The translations under genes and the position numbers were made by a program. Shown piece after piece: positions 15,943 to 27,741 of a DNA stretch of 33,618 nucleotides. The stretch spans positions 1 through 33,618 of the forward strand of contig BJGO01000004.1 of the NCBI GenBank assembly GCA_014190535.1. The letters run 5' to 3'. The stretch is from Bacteroidota bacterium. GTDB lineage: Bacteria > Bacteroidota > Bacteroidia > Chitinophagales > UBA10324. The stretch's first letter is position 1. Every line of letters begins with the position of its first letter. The notes under the pieces were generated by a model. That model was not told the origin of the DNA and ran no database searches. It worked only from the letters and a program-made list of their open reading frames with translations.

Positions 15943-17283
15943 ATGAACACCTATCTAATTAAAGATGTACAAATAATCAATGAGGGAAACATTGTTACCG
16001 GCAGTGTATTAATTGAACATAACCGGATTAAAGAAATAGGCAATCAACTGAATGAGAACGGCGCTACGCTGATCGATGGCACCAATCATGTATTGTTCCC
16101 GGGTATCATCGATGGTCAGGTTCATTTTCGTGAACCGGGCCTAACCCATAAAGCAGACCTCTATACCGAGACTAAGGCGGCTGTTGCAGGAGGCATTACT
16201 TCATTTATTGATATGCCCAACACCATACCCAACGTATTAACACCGGAAATTTTACACGAGAAATATCGATTGGCATCCATGCACGCATTGGCTAACTATG
16301 GTTTCCTGATGGGTGTTAACGGTCAAAATCTGGATGAGGTCATACAAATGGATAAGACCGGCCTGCTTGGACTTTCCGACGACGGCCTCTATTTCAGCGG
16401 TAAGGGGAATCTGCTTGCCGATCATCCCGAAATTCTTGAAAAACTATTTAAGCATTGCCATGCCATCATCGGCATCCATTCAGAAAAGGAGCAACTTATC
16501 GAAGAAAATGAACACAAGTACCGTTCGATTTATGGTGATGAGATCCCCTTTGAGTATCATCCGCTGATACGCAGTGAACAAGCCTGCTATGAAGCAACTA
16601 AACAGGCCATTGCGCTGGCGAACACCTACAAGGCACGCCTACACATACTTCATCTTTCAACCGAAGCCGAAACCCGTTTATTCCGAAACGATATTCCACT
16701 AAAAGCAAAAAATATTACTACAGAAGTCTGTATCCATCATTTATGGTTTTCGGATAAAGACTATAAACAACTTGGCCCTCTCATTAAATGGAACCCTGCC
16801 ATCAAAACCGAAAAAGACAGACAAGGACTGATGCGCGCCCTTCTGGACGATCGCATAGACATGATTACCACCGACCACGCACCTCATACCCTTACAGAAA
16901 AACAACAAAGCTATTTTAAATCGATGTCGGGGGCTCCTATGGTACAGCATGCCCTTCCGGTAATGCTGGAATTTTATCACAGAGGCATCATTTCTCTTGA
17001 AAAGATTGCTGAAAAGATGTGTCATAATCCGGCAGTGATTTACAACATAAAGGACAGAGGGTATATCCGTGAAGGATATTTTGCAGACCTCACGATGGTA
17101 AACCTGAACAAGCCTCATACCGTAAGCAGAGATACGATCCTGTATAAGTGCGGCTGGTCGCCACTAGAGGGCACCACCCTGCAATCGCAGGTAACACATA
17201 CGTTTGTTAACGGACATTTGGTACACCATAATGGCGTGTTTGATGATCGTACAAGAGGGTCGGCACTCGAAACCAATCATTAA
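15943..17283 (+). CDS. pyrC: Dihydroorotase-like amidohydrolase
   Basis: DGQVHFREPG, GGITSFIDMPNT, IHSE, HILHLST, KWNPAIK, TDHAPH, KCGWSP. Confidence 0.82.
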   Translation: MNTYLIKDVQIINEGNIVTGSVLIEHNRIKEIGNQLNENGATLIDGTNHVLFPGIIDGQVHFREPGLTHKADLYTETKAAVAGGITSFIDMPNTIPNVLTPEILHEKYRLASMHALANYGFLMGVNGQNLDEVIQMDKTGLLGLSDDGLYFSGKGNLLADHPEILEKLFKHCHAIIGIHSEKEQLIEENEHKYRSIYGDEIPFEYHPLIRSEQACYEATKQAIALANTYKARLHILHLSTEAETRLFRNDIPLKAKNITTEVCIHHLWFSDKDYKQLGPLIKWNPAIKTEKDRQGLMRALLDDRIDMITTDHAPHTLTEKQQSYFKSMSGAPMVQHALPVMLEFYHRGIISLEKIAEKMCHNPAVIYNIKDRGYIREGYFADLTMVNLNKPHTVSRDTILYKCGWSPLEGTTLQSQVTHTFVNGHLVHHNGVFDDRTRGSALETNH

Positions 17284-17300
17284 TAAACAAGAGCAACACG

Positions 17301-18137
17301 ATGTTTCAGGGCCGATCACTGGTTATAGCAACAAAACATCATAAAGAACAGGCTATTGCTCCGGTGCTTGAACGGGAGCTGGGCGTTCGATGTTTTGCCG
17401 ATACCACACAGGACACAGATGAACTGGGCACATTTACCGGTGAGGTGGAACGCCGACTGGACCCGATGGCCTCGGCAAGAGAAAAGTGCATGAGAGCGAT
17501 GGCCGCAAATAGTTGTACGCTGGGTGTTGCCAGCGAAGGCTCTTTCGGCCCTCACCCCTCGTTACCGTTTGTTCCGGCAGATGATGAACTTCTGATTTTT
17601 ATCGACACCCTGAACCATATTGAAGTTGTGGTTAGAGAACTCAGCACCTCAACTAATTTTAGTGCAAGGTCGATTACACAGATCCATGAATTATCCGCCT
17701 TTGCCGAGCAAGTTGGATTTCCGTTGCACGGTATCATACTGCGTGATAAAAACCCACATAGCACGGTGATCTATAAAGGCATCCACTCCATGGACGTTTT
17801 GTTAGACCGCTTTGATATGCTGTACACAACATTTCAGTCTGCCTATGCAGAAACCGATATGCGCGCTATGTATAATCCTACACGCATGGAGGTAATCAAA
17901 AAAGCCGCCGAGAAACTGGCGCAAAAAATAAATTCGCGTTGCCCTCAATGCAATACTCCCGGATTCGATATTACAGATGTGATTAGGGGCTTACCCTGCA
18001 GTCTTTGTCATAGACCAACCGACATGATCATTAGCAGTGTTTGTATCTGCTCTGCCTGCCAATACCTGCAGGTAAACAGATATCCCGAGCAGAAATATAC
18101 CGCCGATCCGATGTACTGCAATTTTTGCAACCCCTGA
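17301..18137 (+). CDS. DUF6671-like protein with four C-terminal CxxC pairs
   Basis: IATKHHKE, GTFTGEVER, ASEGSFGPHP, ETDMRAMYNPTRM, CPQC/CSLC/CSAC/CNFC. Family recalled from memory. Confidence 0.7.
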   Translation: MFQGRSLVIATKHHKEQAIAPVLERELGVRCFADTTQDTDELGTFTGEVERRLDPMASAREKCMRAMAANSCTLGVASEGSFGPHPSLPFVPADDELLIFIDTLNHIEVVVRELSTSTNFSARSITQIHELSAFAEQVGFPLHGIILRDKNPHSTVIYKGIHSMDVLLDRFDMLYTTFQSAYAETDMRAMYNPTRMEVIKKAAEKLAQKINSRCPQCNTPGFDITDVIRGLPCSLCHRPTDMIISSVCICSACQYLQVNRYPEQKYTADPMYCNFCNP

Positions 18138-18224
18138 TGGATTCAGCATAATGACTATCTATTGATCTGCTCAATCACGCAATAAACCTATTATTGCATT
18201 CGTTTACGCACACATTATTCATCA

Positions 18225-19025
18225 ATGAAACGTTTCACCTTTTATTTCTGTCTCTTGTTGTTTTACTCATTGTGTTCGTGCAGTAAAGACGAGCAACAAC
18301 AGATCTATATGCCCGAAGTTTCAGCAAATAAATCATCCGAACCGGAGGAAACGAAGAACACAACAGACCCCGTTACCCCTGAACGGAAAGTGATTAAAAA
18401 AGGAGATCTCCATTTTGAAACTTCGAGCAATCAGGAAACCAGGGCCTTCATAACTAAACAAGTTCTTGAATTAAAGGGGTATATTTCAGATGATGATTTT
18501 TATGAATATGACAACCGTACGGAGTATCGTATAACACTACGGGTACCTTCCAATCAATTCGATCAACTCCTGAACCGCTTTACTTCACACGCTAAAAAAA
18601 TTGACCGAAGCAATATCAACACAAGCGATGTAACCGATGAATTCGTTGACATCGAGGCACGGCTAAAAACAAAAAAAGAGTTGGAAAACCGTTACCGGGA
18701 ATTACTGAAGGAAGCCAATAGCGTTGATGATATGCTAGCTATAGAGCGCGAACTGGGGACGCTACGTGCAGACATAGAATCCGCAGAAGGTCGTTTACGA
18801 CTGCTTGACAATCTGGTGTCATACAGCACACTATCTGTTTCGTTCTATGAGAAACATAATGCCGCACTTGGCTTTGGCCTGCGACTCGGAGAAGCTTTGG
18901 AAACAGGTTGGTCTGGTTTACTCTGGTTGATTGTTGCTGTAACCAGCTTATGGCCTTTCATACTTTCTGCAGTTATCCTTGTATTGGTAAATCGCCGATT
19001 CACAAACAACATATCACGAAAATAA
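18225..19025 (+). CDS. DUF4349 family lipoprotein
   Basis: Lipobox-like LCSCS, RKVIKKG, LRVPS, DVTDEFVDIEARL coiled coil, VSYSTL, C-terminal TM with LWPF. Confidence 0.8.
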   Translation: MKRFTFYFCLLLFYSLCSCSKDEQQQIYMPEVSANKSSEPEETKNTTDPVTPERKVIKKGDLHFETSSNQETRAFITKQVLELKGYISDDDFYEYDNRTEYRITLRVPSNQFDQLLNRFTSHAKKIDRSNINTSDVTDEFVDIEARLKTKKELENRYRELLKEANSVDDMLAIERELGTLRADIESAEGRLRLLDNLVSYSTLSVSFYEKHNAALGFGLRLGEALETGWSGLLWLIVAVTSLWPFILSAVILVLVNRRFTNNISRK

Positions 19026-19131
19026 GGACGGTATTAAGCCGCATAAATCAACGTTGCCGGTTTGCTTGCTGATGAAATAATAGTTCGTAGTGTTGTTTAG
19101 ATTGAGTTGTTCCTGATGTATTTTTATTTTC

Positions 19132-20070
19132 ATGAATAGCAATAAGGAAAATTCACGACGACAGTTTTTGCGCAATACCGCATTGGCCTCACTTTCTGCC
19201 GGGTTCATCCCGGTGATTGGCTCAGCCGCCGCTCCCGACAATGCCTCAGGTGGATGCGATCCCACCACCCTTGATGCCTATGGGCAGGGACCATTTTACA
19301 CAGCCAATGCTCCCACCTTAACGGATAATCAGCTTGCATTGGCCAATGAGCCCGGAACCCGACTGGTCATCAGTGGTGTGGTACGCACGCTCGATTGTTC
19401 GCTTGTAATCCCGAATACCCTGATTGATGTATGGCACGCCAATGATGCCGGGGCATACGACACCGTCGGGTATAACCTTAGAGGAATTACCTATTCCAAT
19501 GCTCAGGGCTTTTACATTTTTGAAACCATACTTCCGGGAAAATATCTGAATGGTGCCTCCTATCGGCCACGACATATCCATTTCCGTATTACACCTCCCG
19601 GATTTCCTACCCTGATTACACAGCTTTATTTTGAGGGAGATACGGATATTGCCGGCGATGCCGCCGCATCGGTAACTTCGGGCACCTACGATGCCACAAA
19701 ACGGATTATTCCATTAACCCTGAATGCTGAGAATAAATATGAAGGCACATGGGATATCGTAGTTAACGGATCAGCAACAACCGCACTCCCCGACCTGCAT
19801 CTGGATAAAGGCATGCTCTATCAGGCCACCCCAAATCCGTTTAGCACTGTGGTTCAGATTCATTACGGAATTTTTGAGCCGGCACAGGTTGCGTTACAAA
19901 TTTTTGATATACGGGGAGCCCTTATGGCCACACTGGATGAACAATATCTCACGCCACAGAAATATGTTGCCATCTGGCATCCCGACCGTATGCTCCCTGC
20001 AGGCGTTTATTTTATTGCACTTCGTATTAATGACCTTCAGGTTCATTATGTAAAGACTATGAAAATATAG
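19132..20070 (+). CDS. Intradiol ring-cleavage dioxygenase domain protein with Tat signal and T9SS-type C-terminal domain
   Basis: SRRQFL Tat motif; GPFY, IDVWHANDAGAY, TILPGKY, RPRHIHF, TQLYF; CTD TPNPFS..IFDIRG..GVYF. Confidence 0.85.
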   Translation: MNSNKENSRRQFLRNTALASLSAGFIPVIGSAAAPDNASGGCDPTTLDAYGQGPFYTANAPTLTDNQLALANEPGTRLVISGVVRTLDCSLVIPNTLIDVWHANDAGAYDTVGYNLRGITYSNAQGFYIFETILPGKYLNGASYRPRHIHFRITPPGFPTLITQLYFEGDTDIAGDAAASVTSGTYDATKRIIPLTLNAENKYEGTWDIVVNGSATTALPDLHLDKGMLYQATPNPFSTVVQIHYGIFEPAQVALQIFDIRGALMATLDEQYLTPQKYVAIWHPDRMLPAGVYFIALRINDLQVHYVKTMKI

Positions 20071-20225
20071 CAGTCATTTTTATTGATACTCTCACAAGAA
20101 ATTCTCTGAATAATTCATCTTAGCAGAAGATTTTTAAAAAGTTTAATGTTAACCGGCTTTAAGCAAGTTGCTACCAATTATAGGAATACAAGACCTAATT
20201 CATTAAATCTCCAGACAAACAAGAA

Positions 20226-20957
20226 ATGCCATTTACATTTTCACATCCGGCCATAGTTTTACCGTTGACATTTTTGCCTCGGCAATGGTTTTCTTTAACC
20301 GGACTTGTAATCGGCAGTTTGATACCTGACTTTGAATATTTTTTAAGAATGAGAATTAAGAGTACTTACAGCCACACAATCGACGGACTTTTTTGGTTTG
20401 ATTTACCCTTGGGACTATTGCTCGCTTTTATTTTTCACAACACGGTTCGGAATCGTTTATACGACAATTTGCCTGCATTTTTAAAATCAAGATTTTTAAC
20501 TTTTAAGCAGTTTAACTGGAATAGACACTTCAAAAGAAACTGGTTTGTAGTGGCTATTTCAATTCTTATCGGTGCCGCTTCACATATTTTTTGGGACGGT
20601 TTTACACACGACCACGGTTATTTCGTTCAGGCAATTCCGCAATTGCAAAACGAAGTGAACCTATTAGGCGAACAAATTCCAATTTTAAAAATATTGCAAC
20701 ACAGCTCCACGTTGCTCGGCGCACTTGTAATTGCTTTTGCTATTTACAAACTGCCAATAAACAAGACTGGAAAACAAAATATTAGTTTGAAATACTGGTC
20801 CATTTTATCAGCATTAACATTAACCATAGTTGCAGTCAGACTTTTAAGCGGACTTGAACTGAAACCATACGGAAATATAATTGCGACAACAATTTCGGCA
20901 GGACTAATGTCATTGATATTGACCTCTGTAATTTTTATTAAATCCAATAAACAGTGA
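20226..20957 (+). CDS. DUF4184 family membrane protein (putative metal-dependent hydrolase-like)
   Basis: MPFTFSHPA, GSLIPDFEYF, SHT, SHIFWDGFTH, LQHSST. Confidence 0.82.
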   Translation: MPFTFSHPAIVLPLTFLPRQWFSLTGLVIGSLIPDFEYFLRMRIKSTYSHTIDGLFWFDLPLGLLLAFIFHNTVRNRLYDNLPAFLKSRFLTFKQFNWNRHFKRNWFVVAISILIGAASHIFWDGFTHDHGYFVQAIPQLQNEVNLLGEQIPILKILQHSSTLLGALVIAFAIYKLPINKTGKQNISLKYWSILSALTLTIVAVRLLSGLELKPYGNIIATTISAGLMSLILTSVIFIKSNKQ

Positions 20958-21358
20958 TTGCGTATTTTAAAAAAGCTTTTTATACTATCCGGTTTATTAC
21001 CTGCAACTTATTTCTTAGGGTTGACCCTCTTTTTTTTACCTCACAGGACAAAGAACTTATCTTTTGAATTAGTTGATATTTTAATAGTTACATCCATGTT
21101 TTTTGAAATTTATGGCTGTATCAGTTTATTACTTTCTTGGCTACCTATACTGTAACATAAGTACTTGTTAAAATGTATTTTTTTAGTTCTTGGGATTATA
21201 GGTTCTATAACATTTACAACAATCGAAGGCGTAAAACAGTGTGGACTTGGGTTTTAAATATTGAAGAACCTGTCGAATGGATTATACGGGTTTGGCCTCT
21301 AATCGTATCAACGGTATTAATAGGTTCAAAGAGCACGAAATTATTCAATAAAAATTAA
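20958..21358 (+). pseudogene. Decayed small multi-TM membrane protein gene
   Basis: The hydrophobic reading continues past TAA 21153-21155 (HKYLLKCIFLVLGIIGSITFTTIEG). A one-base loss near 21230 joins it to KTVWTWVLNIEEPVEWIIRVWPLIV. Confidence 0.65.
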
Positions 21359-21481
21359 GGATAGATGATATCCACACAGACCTCATAAAGCCTTAACTAT
21401 CTTACACCTAATGATCTCGCACCAGAAATTGTAAATTCGTATAGTAAACTAATAACTGATCGAATACCGGGAAGATTACAA

Positions 21482-22291
21482 ATGAATCTGGATATTTTAG
21501 ATATAGAATATAAATTAACGAACGAACAAATTCAATTTTATAAAGAACAAGGCTTTGTAAAATTAAAAAATGTTTTGCCGCCAGATATTATTCGATATTT
21601 CAATACAGAGATTTCGAGAAAGGTTAATCAATTAAACACTAACGAAGTTCCATTTGAGCATAGAAACACATACGGAAAAGCTTTTTTGCAGTTATTTAAT
21701 CTTTGGAGAGAAGATCGTAACGTTAAGCTGTTTGTTTTTAGTAAAAGATTGGCCCAAATTGCAAGTGAATTGATGCAAGTCAATGGAGTTAGATTATATC
21801 ATGACCAAGCCCTTTTTAAAGAAGCCGGCGGAGGAATTACACCTTGGCACGCAGATCAGCATTATTGGCCATTATCATCCGATAAAGCCATAACCGCATG
21901 GATACCCTTGCAAAATACACCTCTTGACATGGGGCCACTCGAATTCAGTGCAGGAAGCCAGAATGTTATCACGGGCAGGGAGTTGTCGATCAGCGATAAA
22001 AGCGAAGCTGTGATAAAAAAGAATCTCAAGGTTAATAATTTCCCTCAAGTAATAGAACCATTTGACATCGGAGAAGTGAGCTTCCATTCCGGTTGGGTTT
22101 TTCATAGGGCTGGTGCAAATACTTCCGATCAAATCAGAAAAGTTATGACAATCATCTATATCGACAAGAATATGACTTTAAAAGAGCCTGAAAACAAAGG
22201 ACAATTAAATGATTGGAAAACTTGGTGTCCAAATGCAAAAATTGGGGAGGTTATCCATACACCATTGAATCCTATCCTATATACAAAATAA
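21482..22291 (+). CDS. PhyH family Fe(II)/2-oxoglutarate dioxygenase
   Basis: QIQFYKEQGF, DQALFK, TPWHADQ (HxD), WIPL, GPLEF, FHSGWVFHRAGAN, R-K-V-M. Confidence 0.88.
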   Translation: MNLDILDIEYKLTNEQIQFYKEQGFVKLKNVLPPDIIRYFNTEISRKVNQLNTNEVPFEHRNTYGKAFLQLFNLWREDRNVKLFVFSKRLAQIASELMQVNGVRLYHDQALFKEAGGGITPWHADQHYWPLSSDKAITAWIPLQNTPLDMGPLEFSAGSQNVITGRELSISDKSEAVIKKNLKVNNFPQVIEPFDIGEVSFHSGWVFHRAGANTSDQIRKVMTIIYIDKNMTLKEPENKGQLNDWKTWCPNAKIGEVIHTPLNPILYTK

Positions 22292-22438
22292 CTCATGCTA
22301 CATTATTTAAGCAACCTTGCCTTGCCTCGTAAATGCGGTCTAACGCATAGCAACATCGTCTACACGCAAACCGTAAGGCTCTGAAATAACTAATAATATA
22401 TCGAATCAGTATTTTTTTGTTGCTCATATATGCTTCTG

Positions 22439-22475
22439 TTGCTTCATAACATTCATTTATGCGAAGCCTGTTTTC
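22439..22475. repeat. 37-bp direct repeat copy 1 (dif/tyrosine-recombinase-site-like)
   Basis: TTGCTTCATAA-CATTCAT-TTATGCGAAGC-CTGTTTTC; 32/37 identical to 23396-23432. Confidence 0.7.
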
Positions 22476-22647
22476 AAGTGTCTATGTTCTATTTTTATCT
22501 TAGTGGTATGATGTAGTTTATATAATGATAAGAAGACATGAAAAAACTTCATTGACTAGATTGTAACAAGCACTTTGGGTATTTGAATTGTGGATAGTAT
22601 TTTCACAGTCTGCCATTGTATGCCATAAACAAACAAATAATGATAAT

Positions 22648-23219
22648 ATGAATAACGTTAAATTAATTCTAGTAATGTCATTTCTTCTAGTGACATTTAT
22701 TACAAATGCACAAATTACAGTTTATCGAACTTATGAGGATTTCCAAAATAAAAGAGGGGAAGAATATGATGATTATTGGGGTTACATTCACAGTATGGGG
22801 AGTGTTAAATTAATATTTAAAAAAGATAAAAAGAAAATCAATATTCACTGTAGCGATATATGGGGGTTTATTTACAAAGATGTTTTTTTAGGATTGATAA
22901 AAAATATAATCAGCCTACAAGAGTTATAAGTACCGGCAAGATAATTTATTACGAAAATGGTATAGCAAACCTTAGCATGTTACGAGATAATTCAGAAATA
23001 GGAGCGTTTAAAATTGGTTACTATTGCTATATCTCAAAGAGTATTGACTCTGAATTGATTCCTATGCCGCAGGGCCAATTTAATTCTGATTTAAGAAAAA
23101 AGGTTACAAAATTCAAGGAAGAAAACCCTGAGTACAAGGAACTATTTGATTGTATAGATAATAACTATAATTACCTTAGTGTTCGATCTTGTGTTGTAAA
23201 ATTCGAAAAAAGTGAATAA
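22648..23219 (+). pseudogene. Exported hypothetical protein split by a -1 frameshift at a T7 run
   Basis: Signal peptide ending TNA-Q. The ORF switches frame at GAT GTT TTT TTA GG (T7, 22883-22889); one extra T gives continuous WGFIYKDVFFRIDKKY. Confidence 0.7.
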
Positions 23220-23230
23220 TACGGCACACA

Positions 23231-23380
23231 ATCGAGTAGACGGCCTCGCCAGTTGTAACGGACGAGGTGCGCCTCTCACATCACTGTACGTGCGTGTCTT
23301 GAATACAACGGTTCATTATGTTTTAGAGCTACTTATTGGTAATGTTCAAGCAATGATTCGCAACCTCGTTTTCGCAATCG
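23231..23380 (-). mobile_element. 5'-truncated, degenerate group IIC intron remnant (RT/maturase C-terminus, DV, DVI)
   Basis: The minus strand reads GAACCGTTGTAT..ACGTACAGTGATGTGAGAGG (DV, 23272-23314), then DVI GAGAGGCG..CGTCT-A-CTC with the bulged A 7 nt from a terminal AT. Translation RLRKRGCESLLEHYQ*VALKHNEPLYSRHARTVM* resembles the EPPY.RP.RTVV* tail of IIC RTs. Confidence 0.85.
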
Positions 23381-23395
23381 TATCCATATAACCGA

Positions 23396-23432
23396 TTGCT
23401 TCATAAGGTTCATTTAAGCGATGCCTGTATTC
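23396..23432. repeat. 37-bp direct repeat copy 2
   Basis: TTGCTTCATAA-GGTTCAT-TTAAGCGATGC-CTGTATTC; 957 bp from copy 1 and adjacent to the intron truncation point. Confidence 0.7.
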
Positions 23433-23781
23433 TGGTTTTTGTTGCGAACAGGTTATCCGTTTATAGTCCGCTTACTTTTATACTGTAGTTTGAAAACAGT
23501 TGCGCAGTGTGATGTAGTGTAAGCTTACCCATTATTCGACCAGTTAGTAGTTGACTTTATGAATTAACAATAGCCTTCAATAAAACGGCAGGTGCCGGGT
23601 TATTAAATGCTTTGTGTTGCCTGTGATCGTTTCGCATAAGATCAGAAACAATTCGTATAAGCACCTGCTATCTGATCCTGAAATAGCAAACAACCTGTCT
23701 ATATCATTTTCCTATTCATTATCAAAGACTCTTTTTTTTGCTTTTATTTGAAAGCTGATAACACGAATACCCACCAAAAAA

Positions 23782-26088
23782 TTGGCGTCTAACCCCTATA
23801 GCAAAACCCTTTTCAAACTTGCACTTCTGTATGTGCTGTTTGTATTTCCCTTTTATAGTACTGCTCAAAAAATCCGTTTCGAGGGCAAGGTAATAGATGC
23901 ACTTTCGGGTGATGCGTTGGCAGGTGCATCAATAATTTTGGATCAGGTACACGCATACACCAGCAACGAAAACGGTTTGTTTACGCTAACAACCGAGCCC
24001 GGCAATCATCAGCTAATCATCTATCACGTGGGATACCGGGACACGCTACTGAATGTGCCGATGACATCGGATCATCCATTCATTACCATTCATCTGATTA
24101 AGAAAGAACAGATGCTTCAGGAAGTTATCATAGGAGCAAATAGGTATGGAAGAGCGCTAATCGAACAAATTTCAAGCATAAGCACGATCAATCCTAAAGA
24201 AGTTCAGTTTAAAAACATTCAGGATGCGGCACAAGCCATAGATCAGTTGTCGGGCGTTGTTGTTATCGACGGACAGGCCAGCATTCGTGGTGGAAGCGGC
24301 TATGCCTTTGGAGCCGGTAGCCGGGTTATGATGGTATATGATGGTGTGCCCATGCTAACCTCCGACAGAAATGATGTTAAATGGAGCTTCATTCCCATGG
24401 AAAATGTGGAACGAATTGAACTGGTAAAAGGGGCCTCATCGGTGCAATATGGATCATCTGCCCTGAATGGTGTTTTAAATATTCAAACAGCATTTGCCGT
24501 AAAGGACGATGAAACCACGTTTTCTACTTATCTCACCCGATATGATGGAAGTATTCCGGCTAACAAGATAAGGCCTGAAGACAAAGTGCCTTTTGCCACC
24601 GGCGGTTACCTTCTGCACAAAATGAAACGTGGCAAGAGTGATTTCGTGATCAATGCCTATGCTCACCGCTCTCAAAGCTGGCTCCAGGGGGAATTTGCCA
24701 AACGCTCGCGACTGCACGTAAAATACCGCTATCGGCTCAGTGAGCGCACGTCTTTTGGCATTAACCTCACCGGTATGTTACAACACACGTCTCAATTCTT
24801 CTTCTGGTCTGACGACTCTGTGGGCGCTTATCAGCCGTTAAACGGAACAACTACTCTTGTTAATCTGAAAGAACTATATACCGTTGCACAGGCCAATATG
24901 CATCACTTTGATCGCAATAACATTAAACACACAGCCCATATTCAGTACTATCACACGAATCATATAAACGGACGACTATGGCAACCCGCTACAAATTTAT
25001 TCAGCGCCGATTATCACATGCAAAAAGAATTTAATACGTGGATCCTAAGCGGAGGGGTATATACCAATGCATTTTTTTTCAGAGATGACGGAATAGGTGG
25101 CAGGCATTCGGGTAATCAGGGCTCTTTGTTTGTACAATTCGAAAAAGCCTTTAATAAATTCCGAATCGAAGGCGGCGGCCGTATGGAACTGTTCCGACTA
25201 GATACCATTTATGCCGGCTCAAGACCGGTAGGCCGAATAGGTATAAACTACTCGCCATACAAACAGCTCTTCCTCAGGGCCTCATTTGGTCAGGGGTTCC
25301 GTTTCCCAAGTCCGGCAGAGCGCTATGTAAACTATTCACTCGGCGATATCTATATCTACCCCAACCCAACATTGCTTCCGGAAAAAGGCTGGAGTTCTGA
25401 AATCGGCCTTAGAAAAAAAGCCTCGCTCGGTAAGTTTAATGCCTATGCCGACTGGGCATTATTTCTTCAGGGATTTACCAATATGATGGAATTCTCGTTT
25501 GGGCAGTGGGGCAATCCATCGGCTCCGTTTTTTGGTCTTGGCTTTAAGTCGGTTAACGTAAATGAAGCACGTATGGCAGGCAGTGAACTGGAGTTAGGTG
25601 TTCAAAAAAATATCGGCAAACTTAAACTACTCACCGACATTGGTTATACCTACACATATCCGGTAGACCTCAATGCCGATTCGTCGCTTCGATCGGCAAA
25701 AAATTTTATGCAAGGATTCATAAAAGGTTTGTATAACACCGACAGCACATTCAGGCGTGGGTTATTGCGCTACCGTAATCGCCATCTGATTAAGTTCGAT
25801 CTGGACGTAAGTTATAACCGTTTATCTTTTGGAGGAAGTATTAAATATTACAGCCGTATGGATAATATTGATTCATACCTTGCACTGTTTATACCCGGCG
25901 TTAATGGCTATCGCAAGGATCATTTGCAGGGCGATTGGCTATTTGATTTGAGACTATCCTATCAGGCAGATCAGTACGGTAAAGTGGCCCTCATTTGTAA
26001 TAATTTATTGAACTCATTTTATGCCATTCGCATCGCCCGGCCTGATGCACCCAGAGGATTTACCATACAGTACACCTATACGCTGTAG
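23782..26088 (+). CDS. TonB-dependent receptor with N-terminal carboxypeptidase-regulatory-like domain
   Basis: GKVIDALSGDALAGASI, HVGY, SIRGGSG, IELVKGASSVQYGSSALNGVLN plug, LLPEKG, NNLLN; TTG start uncertain. Confidence 0.9.
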   Translation: MASNPYSKTLFKLALLYVLFVFPFYSTAQKIRFEGKVIDALSGDALAGASIILDQVHAYTSNENGLFTLTTEPGNHQLIIYHVGYRDTLLNVPMTSDHPFITIHLIKKEQMLQEVIIGANRYGRALIEQISSISTINPKEVQFKNIQDAAQAIDQLSGVVVIDGQASIRGGSGYAFGAGSRVMMVYDGVPMLTSDRNDVKWSFIPMENVERIELVKGASSVQYGSSALNGVLNIQTAFAVKDDETTFSTYLTRYDGSIPANKIRPEDKVPFATGGYLLHKMKRGKSDFVINAYAHRSQSWLQGEFAKRSRLHVKYRYRLSERTSFGINLTGMLQHTSQFFFWSDDSVGAYQPLNGTTTLVNLKELYTVAQANMHHFDRNNIKHTAHIQYYHTNHINGRLWQPATNLFSADYHMQKEFNTWILSGGVYTNAFFFRDDGIGGRHSGNQGSLFVQFEKAFNKFRIEGGGRMELFRLDTIYAGSRPVGRIGINYSPYKQLFLRASFGQGFRFPSPAERYVNYSLGDIYIYPNPTLLPEKGWSSEIGLRKKASLGKFNAYADWALFLQGFTNMMEFSFGQWGNPSAPFFGLGFKSVNVNEARMAGSELELGVQKNIGKLKLLTDIGYTYTYPVDLNADSSLRSAKNFMQGFIKGLYNTDSTFRRGLLRYRNRHLIKFDLDVSYNRLSFGGSIKYYSRMDNIDSYLALFIPGVNGYRKDHLQGDWLFDLRLSYQADQYGKVALICNNLLNSFYAIRIARPDAPRGFTIQYTYTL

Positions 26089-26184
26089 CATACTATGATG
26101 GACGCGCAAAAAGGAATCAATCCCGATTTACGGAACGGATTATTTCTTACCTGTCCCTTCGGGCACAGTCTGATTCATACATTG

Positions 26185-26192
26185 TACTTTTG
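26185..26192 (+). promoter_or_regulatory. Putative -7 promoter box TACTTTTG for lysS
   Basis: Exact TAnnTTTG about 30 nt upstream of the ATG. Confidence 0.5.
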
Positions 26193-26223
26193 TGCGCGTT
26201 ATTAAAAATGGAAAATCAACTTC

Positions 26224-27741
26224 ATGACACAATTAAGTGAACACGAGATTATCAGGCGCCAAACGCTGACTGAATTGGAGCAATTAGGTATCAACCCCTA
26301 CCCTGCTGAAACCTTTGAAATAAATGACACGAGTAAACAGATTGCCGAGTTATATCAGCAAAATACCGCCGCCTACGATGGTAAAACAATTTCAATTGCC
26401 GGTCGCATAATGAGCAAACGAATTATGGGCTCTGCTTCATTTGCTGTTCTTCAAGATAGTCAGGGCAGAATTCAGTTGTATATCAGCCGCGATGAGCTCT
26501 GTCCGGCCGAAGACAAAACATTTTATAATACCGTTTTCAAGAAACTAATAGACCTCGGCGATTTTGTTGGAATTACAGGATATGTGTTTCGTACAAAAAC
26601 CGGAGAGATCAGCATACACGTGCAATCGCTCAGGCTATTGAGCAAATCACTTAAACCACTTCCTGTTGTTAAAGAGAAAGAGGGCGAGTTATTTGACGCC
26701 GTTACTGATCCCGAATTACGTTACCGTCAACGCTATGTAGACCTTAACATCAACCCTGCATCCAAAGAAGTATTTATTAAGCGCACTAAACTGGTAAATT
26801 CTATTCGTGAGTATCTGAACGCTAAAGAATATCTTGAAGTAGAAACACCAATCCTGCAGCCTATTTATGGAGGTGCCGCCGCCAGACCATTTAAGACACA
26901 TCATAACACACTCGATATGCCTCTCTATTTGCGCATTGCAAATGAGTTGTACCTGAAACGTTTAATCGTTGGCGGATTTGATGGTGTATATGAATTCAGT
27001 AAAGACTTTCGTAACGAAGGCATGGATCGCACCCATAATCCTGAGTTTACACAAATGGAATTATACGTAGCCTATAAAGATTATTACTGGATGATGGATC
27101 TGGTTGAGGAGATGGTTGAGAAAGTTGCCATTGACGTAAATGGCACAACTGAGGTGCAGGTTGGACAACATGTAATCAACTTTAAACGACCCTGGAAACG
27201 CTATACTATGTTTGAAGCGATAAAGGAATATACCGGTGTCGATATCAGCGAAATGGATGAGGCGCAGTTACGCCTTACGGCTCACGATTTAAAAGTAACT
27301 ATAGATCATACGATGGGAAAAGGGAAAATTATTGATGAAATCTTTGGTGAACACGTGGAACCTAAACTGATACAACCTACATTCATAACCGATTATCCAC
27401 TCGAGATGTCGCCTTTGGCAAAAAAGCATCGTAACAGACCCGGATTAGTAGAACGCTTCGAGGCCATATGTAATGCTAAAGAACTATGCAACTCGTTTTC
27501 CGAATTAAACGATCCTATCGATCAGCGTAAACGATTTGAAGAACAGGTAGAACTAGGTAAACGCGGTGATGAAGAGGCTATGGTGCTCGATGAAGATTTC
27601 CTGAGAGCCTTAGAGTATGGTATGCCTCCAACAGCTGGACTGGGAATTGGTATAGACCGTTTATCCATGATTATGACCAATTCACACTCCATACAGGATG
27701 TCTTGTTCTTCCCGCAGATGAAGCCGGAACGATTCGATTAA
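26224..27741 (+). CDS. lysS: Lysine--tRNA ligase (class II)
   Basis: [55 protein letters not shown]. Confidence 0.98.

Follow-up and report, generated by a model that had tools for sequence, protein, structure and literature searches.

An AT-rich island of the freshwater Bacteroidota bacterium assembly GCA_014190535.1 (Chitinophagales; UBA10324) extends from a dioxygenase gene to a TonB-dependent receptor gene, at positions 20071-23781 of contig BJGO01000004.1, the whole 33,618 nucleotides (nt) of which are referred to here as the window. The window is the entire contig C4 of the source genome (G000), an assembly of 2.64 Mb in 261 contigs. The GC content of the island, taken without regard to strand, is 0.343 compared with 0.415 for the genome, which bears out the AT-rich run reported in a preliminary description of this DNA. 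All the 500-nt segments of 20001-23500 lie between 0.28 and 0.37, the flanks lie at about 0.40-0.48, and values as low as that of the island are reached in 0.75% of 1876 genome-wide 3.5-kb segments. The co-oriented genes with long spacers were also found as described: four units on the + strand, with spacers of 155, 123, 356 and 562 nt, which are a DUF4184 gene, a group of small open reading frames (ORFs; unit 2), a PhyH-family dioxygenase gene and a last gene (gene 4). The right-hand part of the island, with the PhyH gene and gene 4, is on balance probably what is left of a decaying cassette array of integron type, and not the active accretion site with named ends that had been proposed.

The PhyH gene (21482-22291, + strand; Pfam PF05721) is intact and imported; it is present in neither of two same-genus genomes and in five of eight genomes of genus g4. 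Its best copy, in genome G017, shows 83% nucleotide identity over 21482-22293, from the start codon to two bases beyond the stop codon, and none further; there the ORF begins 19 nt after a match to an attC-type site (47 bits) and is followed by an insertion sequence (IS). Behind the PhyH gene, a decayed copy of a multi-copy element, called here the junction repeat, occupies 22366-22620 (+ strand), with module A at 22366-22509, module B at 22509-22620 and module C missing; its left end is an R'-like GTAAGGC and its right end reads ...TTCACAGTCTGCC, followed by a degenerate core. Gene 4 (22648-23219, + strand) is weakly DUF6705-like (Pfam PF20448, N-terminal part, E 0.003, below the cut-off) and is split by a frameshift. 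It is followed on the minus strand by a putative miniature group II intron relic (23231-23449) and, beside the 5' end of this relic, by a remnant of module C (23450-23518, + strand; 80% match to other module C copies) that includes the hairpin AGGTTATCCGTTTATAGTCC (23450-23469).

The G017 contig with this PhyH copy has a second, partial one (G017:C117:29376-29828; residues 119-269, 79%). Roughly 1 kb downstream of the partial copy comes a ParD/ParE pair and then an attC-type site of 91 bits.

Two inverted, decayed IS ends putatively bracket 21481-23517. The left one is part of a stretch (21369-21481, + strand) that may be the 3' relic of a DDE-transposase gene with its IS end: it translates as YPHRPHKAL, then NYLTPNDLAPEIV... 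one frame over, and it ends in ...AAGATTACA at 21480, one base before the PhyH start codon. The DDE family is assigned from a motif regarded as typical of such transposase ends; Pfam found nothing for the 31-residue piece, and a tblastn search of plasmids yielded nothing useful. The absence of integrases and transposases claimed earlier holds for intact genes, but not if this relic is what we take it to be. Its last part (21428-21480, + strand) is the left arm of a 54-nt inverted repeat that aligns plus/minus to 23571-23518 (blastn, 44/54, 81%, E 3e-7). The right arm, a putative IS end (23518-23571, + strand), starts with TGTAAGCTTACCC and is 89% identical to C7:27229-27274. Two more solo copies of the relic were found in G000 (C66:1956-2042 and C7:27192-27274) and none among the 27 other family genomes; the family comparison set consists of 28 genomes including G000, of which G002 belongs to the same genus.

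The ends named in the preliminary description are of another kind. The motif GTTGCTACCAAT, placed upstream of the first gene, is indeed present at 20167-20178, but it is neither enriched nor a boundary site: the genome contains two exact copies and 14 matches with at most one mismatch against about 11.6 expected, and the window has two matches with at most two mismatches against 3.6 expected. The complementary ends attributed to the last gene dissolve into background, as the best pair that brackets the gene (22587-22601 with 23218-23232) comprises 15 nt at 73%, and 18 pairs of this kind, itself included, occur in 761 AT-rich nt. On the other hand, the direct repeats described as dif-like are real, a 37-nt pair of 86% identity, but they are internal to the multi-copy element and not at a boundary: copy 1 (22439-22475, + strand) is a conserved block of the junction repeat and copy 2 (23396-23432, + strand) falls within the intron relic, the block being common to the A-type and X-type copies. 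Copy 1 contains CATAA-N7-TTATGCG, the family consensus is TTAAGCG and the spacer has 7 nt and not 6, so that the repeat does not fit a dif site. Searches for structured RNA gave no match to Rfam at gathering thresholds in the whole window and only noise at E <= 10 in 19900-23900, and a tRNA scan of the window found none.

The junction repeat itself is about 360 nt long and non-coding, and is composed of modules A, C and B, with an X variant that substitutes the left part of A. Before gene 4 the window has the arrangement A-B, with C deleted, and after it X-A'-C. By blastn there are 22 matches in G000, 13 in G002 and, for the repeat proper, 0 in the other 26 family genomes; the spacers 22366-22620 and 23230-23520 match 17 contigs of G000, many of them at contig ends. 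Other G000 copies are 92-98% identical among themselves, whereas the copies of the window are only 78-81% alike to them and AT-richer, and are therefore regarded as older or decaying. Elsewhere the repeats alternate with single genes (C61, C92 and C86 of G000, and G002:C27, where the last repeat adjoins a core gene on the opposite strand). The ends of the repeat are mutually inverted, (A)AACCGT|CAGGCTGTGAA on the left and TTCACAGTCTG|(A/C)CGT on the right. GTTA(G/T/C)NN follows 10 of the 12 full B-ends of G000, the exceptions being the window copy and the C63 copy, and in most cases GCAAT/GCAAC-like letters come next, as after the attC sites of relatives; the short end motif also occurs at places such as C66 and C1 that are not full copies. 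From these letters, the simplest reading would be that the repeat was inserted in the R' core (..AAACC GTTAGNN), with (A/C)CGT left at either side; a transposase, an IntI-type crossover at G|TT or some other process may have been responsible. A 16-mer of the repeat, searched over 185,579 species with one genome each, gave 45 stretches and no autonomous version; beyond the contigs of one other genome these are scattered single matches in unrelated phyla, taken as chance. No match was obtained by blastn of the repeat against the integrase-proximal DNA of relatives, and Rfam returned nothing for the repeat itself at four repeat loci.

The junction repeat might also be an ORF-less cassette with an attC of its own, but no attC-like fold was detected in module B.

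The relationship of this repeat with integron-type sites was seen outside the window. G000 has five attC-type sites of about 135 nt each, on C61, C76, C86, C92 and C251. For four of them the position relative to the preceding gene can be judged, and it ranges from 7 nt inside the stop codon to 20 nt past it. Each of the five is on a short contig of its own, which breaks in the junction repeat. When they are aligned, the sequences differ and the pairing is kept: compensatory changes affect 10 of 22 pairs, 84% of cells are paired as compared with 31-39% when the partners are slid, and of five measures four were reached by none of 500 shuffles, and the one for further pair types by 13 of them. 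The junction repeat follows all five sites, starting within the R' core; its start, CGT(C/T)AGGCTGTGAA, is the 3' end of an imperfect inverted repeat of 133-137 nt in the five out of five copies with enough upstream sequence. Two covariance models were used, R1 made from the five G000 sites and R2 made from 15 sites, all of other genera. R2 recovers exactly the same five sites of G000, with 75-112 bits, and the family is for this reason read as one of attC sites.

In relatives such sites occur in arrays. R1 matches at E <= 0.01 number six in G001, five in G002, 11 in G005, 19 in G014 and 23 in G033, with co-oriented arrays of five sites in G033:C11, four in G001:C9 and four in G005:C5 (five or six with filters off). 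The ends of these sites, ..(C/T)TAAC and GTT(A/G)(G/T/C)NN, fit RYYYAAC / GTTRRRY well, contrary to the earlier expectation of sites that depart from the strict consensus, and the next unit often begins with GCAAC. In the G005 array an ORF lies 50-100 nt before each site, and among the cargo are a PIN toxin together with its small partner, a VIT protein, a type IX secretion system (T9SS) protein and an IS; in G017 ParD/ParE precede an attC-type site. Cargo of this kind (PIN with antitoxin, ParDE, VIT) is typical of cassette contents. In G000 the genes that precede the attC-type sites are AT-rich (GC 0.29-0.33), with 0.40 for a rhodopsin gene. The covariance models find sites elsewhere in the genome and in relatives, but none in the window.

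Two of the G000 loci have contents of their own. The bacteriorhodopsin-like gene at C86:363-1220 (Pfam E 1.1e-42) has a junction repeat on one side and, 8 nt past its stop codon, an attC-type site on the other, and looks cassette-borne, and just upstream of it there is a DUF805 RNA motif (RF03081, 52.0 bits, gathering score 51.1; L005:281-348). At C61:12609-13917 a 294-residue Ntox44-domain protein and a 121-residue ORF are followed by an attC-type site; they resemble a cassette-borne polymorphic toxin and, possibly, its immunity gene.

With respect to the enzymes, the tyrosine recombinases of G000 are only a XerC-like one (C110, followed by a hibernation-factor gene) and a XerD-like one (C257 and C6). 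Related to the latter, its gene is split over contig ends (C257:6-590 and C6:12-260) and about 25 profile positions are lacking between the pieces, for which an inserted repeat or a gap in the assembly may be responsible. The integron-integrase profile TIGR02249 has its own cut-off, which was reached in none of the 28 family genomes. Nevertheless, 12 of these genomes contain 13 IntI-like genes that score 93-134 bits, far better than Xer genes, and match the profile at about 2-180 and 240-315, with about 181-239 unmatched. The protein of G005 (293 residues, Phage_int_SAM_4 and Phage_integrase domains) aligns to VchIntIA in two pieces and has 23 residues where VchIntIA has 66 at the IntI-specific insertion; given this and the unmatched stretch of the profile, the enzymes of the relatives are considered to be without that insertion. 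In G005, where one IntI-like gene is at C5:2017528-2018331, the distance to an attC match is 1.1-5.5 kb for all three IntI-like genes or fragments, and two large ORFs separate the IntI-like gene from the first attC. The survey of tyrosine recombinases gave Xer-like genes alone in the source genome, and in relatives IntI-like genes lacking the hallmark; nothing was found to show that a recombinase supplied in trans, as had been supposed, acts at this locus.

Parts of 20000-24000 are contained in 20 public DNA runs; these belong to 10 studies and are for the most part metagenomes of freshwater and sediment. Four runs from four studies (X1, X2, X3 and X9) were compared by contigs at >=90% likeness; contigs of this origin prove presence, not absence, and repeats may mislead assemblers. 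X1 holds 88% of the words and may be the source sample. All four runs cover 18000-22614 and 23343-27000, X2 with one 22-kb contig that spans 18000-22469, and only 22615-23229, that is gene 4, varies among the four populations. A joint from 22614 directly to 23230, skipping 615 nt (the intervening letters are not known), is found in one contig of X2 at depth 34 and in two contigs of X9 at depth 90. X2 contains both forms at similar depth, and in X3 the contig with gene 4 has depth 14 against 69-86 alongside. X9 has no cover at 22816-23116, which counts only together with the joints and with a 4694-nt contig that covers 20220-22614 and continues with 2.3 kb unlike the window. The break points of the slot are the B-end of the junction repeat and the 3' end of the intron relic, and the loose ends behind 22612/22614 start with GTTAGCAGCAAT, GTTAGGCCCAAC, GTTACGCACAAT, GTTAGCGGCAAG and GTTAGCTACAAT; these are R' cores with cassette starts, some of them possibly derived from other copies of the repeat.

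A comparison of gene content between the dioxygenase and TonB genes across related genomes had been recommended; among the four populations the last gene varies and the other three units are fixed. The frameshift of gene 4 lies in a run of seven T (22882-22888), also present in X1; with one extra T at 22882 in the contigs of X2 and X3, the gene is whole in those populations. Of the two genes described as decayed, gene 4 is therefore frameshifted here but whole elsewhere, while unit 2 is broken by a stop codon and a frame change, for which decay is only possible.

The element behind gene 4 had been described as the remnant of a group IIC intron. On the minus strand, domains V-VI would lie at 23313-23231 and the 5' end, GTTCGC, at 23449. 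In 23200-23480 RF00029 was the sole match out of 4227 Rfam families (full model, minus strand, 12.9 bits, E 4.1; the match lies at 23231-23313). Two sister copies, both of G002, reach 24.3 bits (E 0.006) and 27.6 bits (E 0.001). In sister copies GTGCGC comes immediately after a small hairpin, which is a constant part of the repeat and not a varying target. The relic also matches two loci of G034 (blastn E 1e-20) with domains V-VI at 38-39.5 bits, and matches to these domains above the threshold exist in G033 and G034. The relic measures about 220 nt, and the tip of its domain V-like hairpin is replaced by an insertion in two of five aligned copies. The relic runs opposite to the genes, and 10 nt separate its end, ...GUCUACUCGAU, from the gene 4 stop codon. 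IIC-attC introns are placed on the bottom strand, between a cassette ORF and its attC, by PMC3001079. Position and orientation fit such an intron; set against the low scores, the small size and the lack of a reverse transcriptase, this fit weakly supports an intron remnant, in the form of a dead miniature.

Other possible traces of introns were seen in the family. G014:C5:270433-272745 (L168) contains a 462-residue ORF (466-residue open frame) with a reverse-transcriptase domain of 88.7 bits, about 1.6 kb from an attC-type match on the same strand, and G014 gave no match to domains V-VI at E <= 0.1. At G033:C8:929724-932798 (L162) a match to domains V-VI reaches 66.6 bits; before it stand long runs of G and C, about 800 bases in all, which look like an assembly or sequencing artefact replacing the intron body.

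Taken together, these data are, on balance, probably best accommodated as follows. An imported AT-rich island would have lodged at a rearrangement joint, and its portion of about 21481-23520 would be a decayed piece of the integron-type cassette system of the family. The PhyH gene would be a cassette whose own attC is lost or gutted, and the genus-specific junction repeat, normally found in the R' core of attC, would precede the slot of gene 4, one cassette slot still exchanged between strains. A dead miniature group II intron on the opposite strand would sit where IIC-attC introns do, from a cassette ORF to the next site, and two inverted copies of the putative IS end would bracket the whole right-hand part. 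The cassettes may have arrived by IntI-like recombination in an ancestor or donor. For the present turnover of the slot the simplest explanation is homologous recombination by way of the conserved junction repeats, which we infer for a genome that has no integrase. Of the proposed stockpiling of single-gene cassettes there remain the attC-type sites of the lineage and the variable last slot, but neither a window attC nor the left-hand genes as cassettes. A broader and more tentative idea, rather doubtful at present, is that the family may run its cassette system with a recombinase lacking the IntI domain thought to be needed for folded attC and that, in a genus that has lost this recombinase, the composite repeat of inverted R' cores and intron relic serves as portable homology for the swapping of single genes, with the gene 4 slot as a live example.

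Several results weigh against this picture of a decayed cassette array. With R1 the best match of the window (22344-22383, 11.6 bits, E 0.48) keeps both ends and skips 107 core positions, whereas the best match with R2 (E 0.26) is AT-rich noise inside the PhyH gene. The stretch from the PhyH stop codon to the repeat is at most a gutted attC: the candidate at 22294-22383 (+ strand; R2 8.8 bits, E 3.1), of which the R1 match to 22344-22383 is a part, is not significant. A strict scan for R''/R' motif pairs with folding gave no candidate in 19900-23900, although it found only two of five positive controls. No repeat or attC match stands beside the DUF4184 gene or unit 2 by repeat blastn or models R1 and R2, and both of these units and the PhyH gene are covered, and so fixed, in all four metagenome populations. 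The alternative slot alleles are known by joints and depth and not by full sequence, and contigs of a multi-copy repeat may mislead. As far as the enzymes are concerned, TIGR02249 revealed no IntI-like gene in the G000 and G002 assemblies; the IntI-like protein of G005 is about as close to an archaeal XerA-like protein (129 bits) as to VchIntIA (126 bits); and none of the 11 IntI-like loci fetched, several of them cut by contig ends, has an attC within about 1.5 kb by R2. The DEDD transposase (PF01548) is absent from the G000 assembly, and no reverse transcriptase (PF00078) was detected in G000, G001 or G002. No member of the relic family attains the RF00029 gathering score of 40, the 5' end in the window is GUUCG instead of GUGYG, and the IS-end interpretation remained unconfirmed by Pfam and plasmid tblastn.

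An alternative is a plain island shaped by transposable elements only, in which the repeat would be a miniature inverted-repeat transposable element (MITE), with 11-bp inverted ends CAGRCTGTGAA and a duplication of 3-4 bp, that happens to prefer hairpins behind genes, the stem-loops would resemble repetitive extragenic palindromes or terminators, and no integron recombination would have occurred at the locus. The inverted ends of the repeat, with (A/C)CGT on both sides, its presence at many contig ends, as expected of a multi-copy element, the putative IS ends around 21481-23517, and a window without attC in an assembly with Xer-like recombinases and no IntI-type one all agree with this explanation, which we nevertheless consider unlikely. 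The stem-loops of relatives stand in co-oriented arrays, each directly after one gene; their cores are of the RYYYAAC / GTTRRRY kind and the cargo is that of cassettes. Moreover, the repeat begins in the R' core at five of five sites, no transposase able to mobilise it was found (neither DEDD nor a reverse transcriptase in G000), and variation in the window is limited to one gene-sized slot between repeats. Even less probable is that the repeats act as common regulatory leaders (modules of a promoter or 5' untranslated region) for a set of accessory genes, kept by co-regulation, and that gene 4 varies through an ordinary strain indel. In every case an ORF starts 18-137 nt downstream of module B, and PMC3001079 attributes to IIC-attC introns outward promoters that drive the next cassette; but copies close arrays without a gene behind them (window 23230-23520 and G002:C27), the downstream genes are mutually unrelated, and the repeat is a mosaic and often truncated.

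The model of the preliminary description, in which 20100-23432 is an active integrase-less accretion site holding four cassettes with non-canonical attC/dif-like ends and served by a recombinase in trans such as XerC/D, is the least credible of all and would be very surprising. It could draw on the XerC- and XerD-like genes being the only ones kept in the genome, on the resemblance of CATAA-N7-TTATGCG in repeat copy 1 to a dif half-palindrome and on the variation of gene 4 between populations. However, the ends that it names are neither enriched nor at boundaries, the family consensus TTAAGCG and the spacing of 7 instead of 6 disagree with it, no repeat or site accompanies the DUF4184 gene or unit 2, and three of the four units are fixed in four populations.

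The decayed cassette array can be compared with several known systems. Xer/dif modules, such as pdif modules and the integrative mobile elements exploiting Xer recombination (IMEXs), share with this locus a genome with XerC/D only and no integrase, and a short dif-like half-palindrome in the repeat. They differ in that the motif is internal to the repeat, that the 7-nt spacer and the consensus do not fit a 28-bp 11-6-11 site, and that no inverted pair of sites flanks a gene. IS1111 elements are not known to make a duplication, whereas (A/C)CGT is found on both sides of the junction repeat; in addition, the repeat is non-coding and about 360 nt long, and no DEDD transposase was found in the assembly. 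The repeat is nonetheless similar to the IS1111-attC elements ISKpn4 and ISPst6 (PMC11187229) in lying at one attC end in one orientation and in having 11-bp inverted repeats, to be compared with the 11-13 bp subterminal repeats of IS1111.

The intron relic is like IIC-attC introns such as S.ma.I2 (PMC3001079) in its opposite strand, its position from an ORF to the next site, its domain V-VI-like 3' end and, in the sister copies, the GTGCG 5' end directly after a hairpin. On the other hand, with about 220 nt, no reverse-transcriptase ORF, practically no domains I-IV, and domains V-VI below the Rfam threshold, it adjoins a constant hairpin of the repeat rather than a varying attC, and no intact intron was found in the genus. 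A further parallel is that of clusters of attC sites lacking integron-integrases (CALINs) and of sedentary chromosomal integron arrays, as treated in PMC8618304: single promoterless-looking genes with a site of about 135 nt that is an imperfect palindrome with RYYYAAC / GTTRRRY-like cores, co-oriented arrays in relatives, AT-rich miscellaneous cargo that includes toxin-antitoxin pairs, and no integrase in G000. The differences are that the recombinases of relatives lack the IntI-specific insertion and remain below the TIGR02249 cut-off, and that every site of this genus has a 360-nt repeat lodged in its R' core. Having no intact attC, the window is by definition not a CALIN.

Integrons are barely documented in Bacteroidota; the IntegronFinder 2.0 preprint reports for this phylum only In0 elements and one complete integron, in Salinibacter. 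In contrast, the family studied here shows arrays of canonical-looking attC sites, some of them near recombinases without the IntI hallmark, and a genus without an IntI-type recombinase still has a cassette that varies between natural populations. If the reading were true, the known range and mode of cassette exchange would be widened, it would become visible what standard tools overlook because they require the IntI-specific domain, and integrase-free cassette turnover would become a testable case. For the window alone the meaning is more modest, that of a decayed fragment and not of an active site.

The remaining genes concern the left-hand part and the surroundings of the island. The DUF4184 gene, also similar to Zn-dependent phospholipase C (20226-20957, + strand; Pfam PF13803, E 1.8e-72), is intact and was found in G000 alone of the 28 family genomes. 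Unit 2 (20958-21358, + strand) consists of small membrane-like ORFs with an in-frame stop codon and a frame change in the three-frame translation and no Pfam match, and is possibly a decayed gene. The left-hand part formed by the DUF4184 gene and these small ORFs would simply be foreign DNA without a detectable site. With regard to unit 2, its frame differs among strains: a base is missing at 21346 in three of the four runs, and there is an extra A at 21037 in one run.

The island is flanked on the left by a gene for a T9SS-tailed dioxygenase (19132-20070) and on the right by that for the TonB-dependent receptor (23782-26088), next to which lies lysS. In G002 the dioxygenase gene comes directly after the block w7215..w15835 and has hisS behind it; lysS and the clpB block are on a separate long contig. 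Upstream of lysS, G001 and G002 have in common a different gene block. Orthologs of the TonB receptor (56-58%) are restricted to other genera. From this gene order and this distribution, 20071-26223 is deduced to be a lineage-specific rearrangement joint, where the available species genomes do not resolve single cassettes. Close to it, the amidohydrolase, DUF6671 and DUF4349 genes of 15943-19025 are missing from the syntenic stretch of G002, in which the dNK gene stands directly before the dioxygenase gene; this difference is a second indel, adjoining the island.

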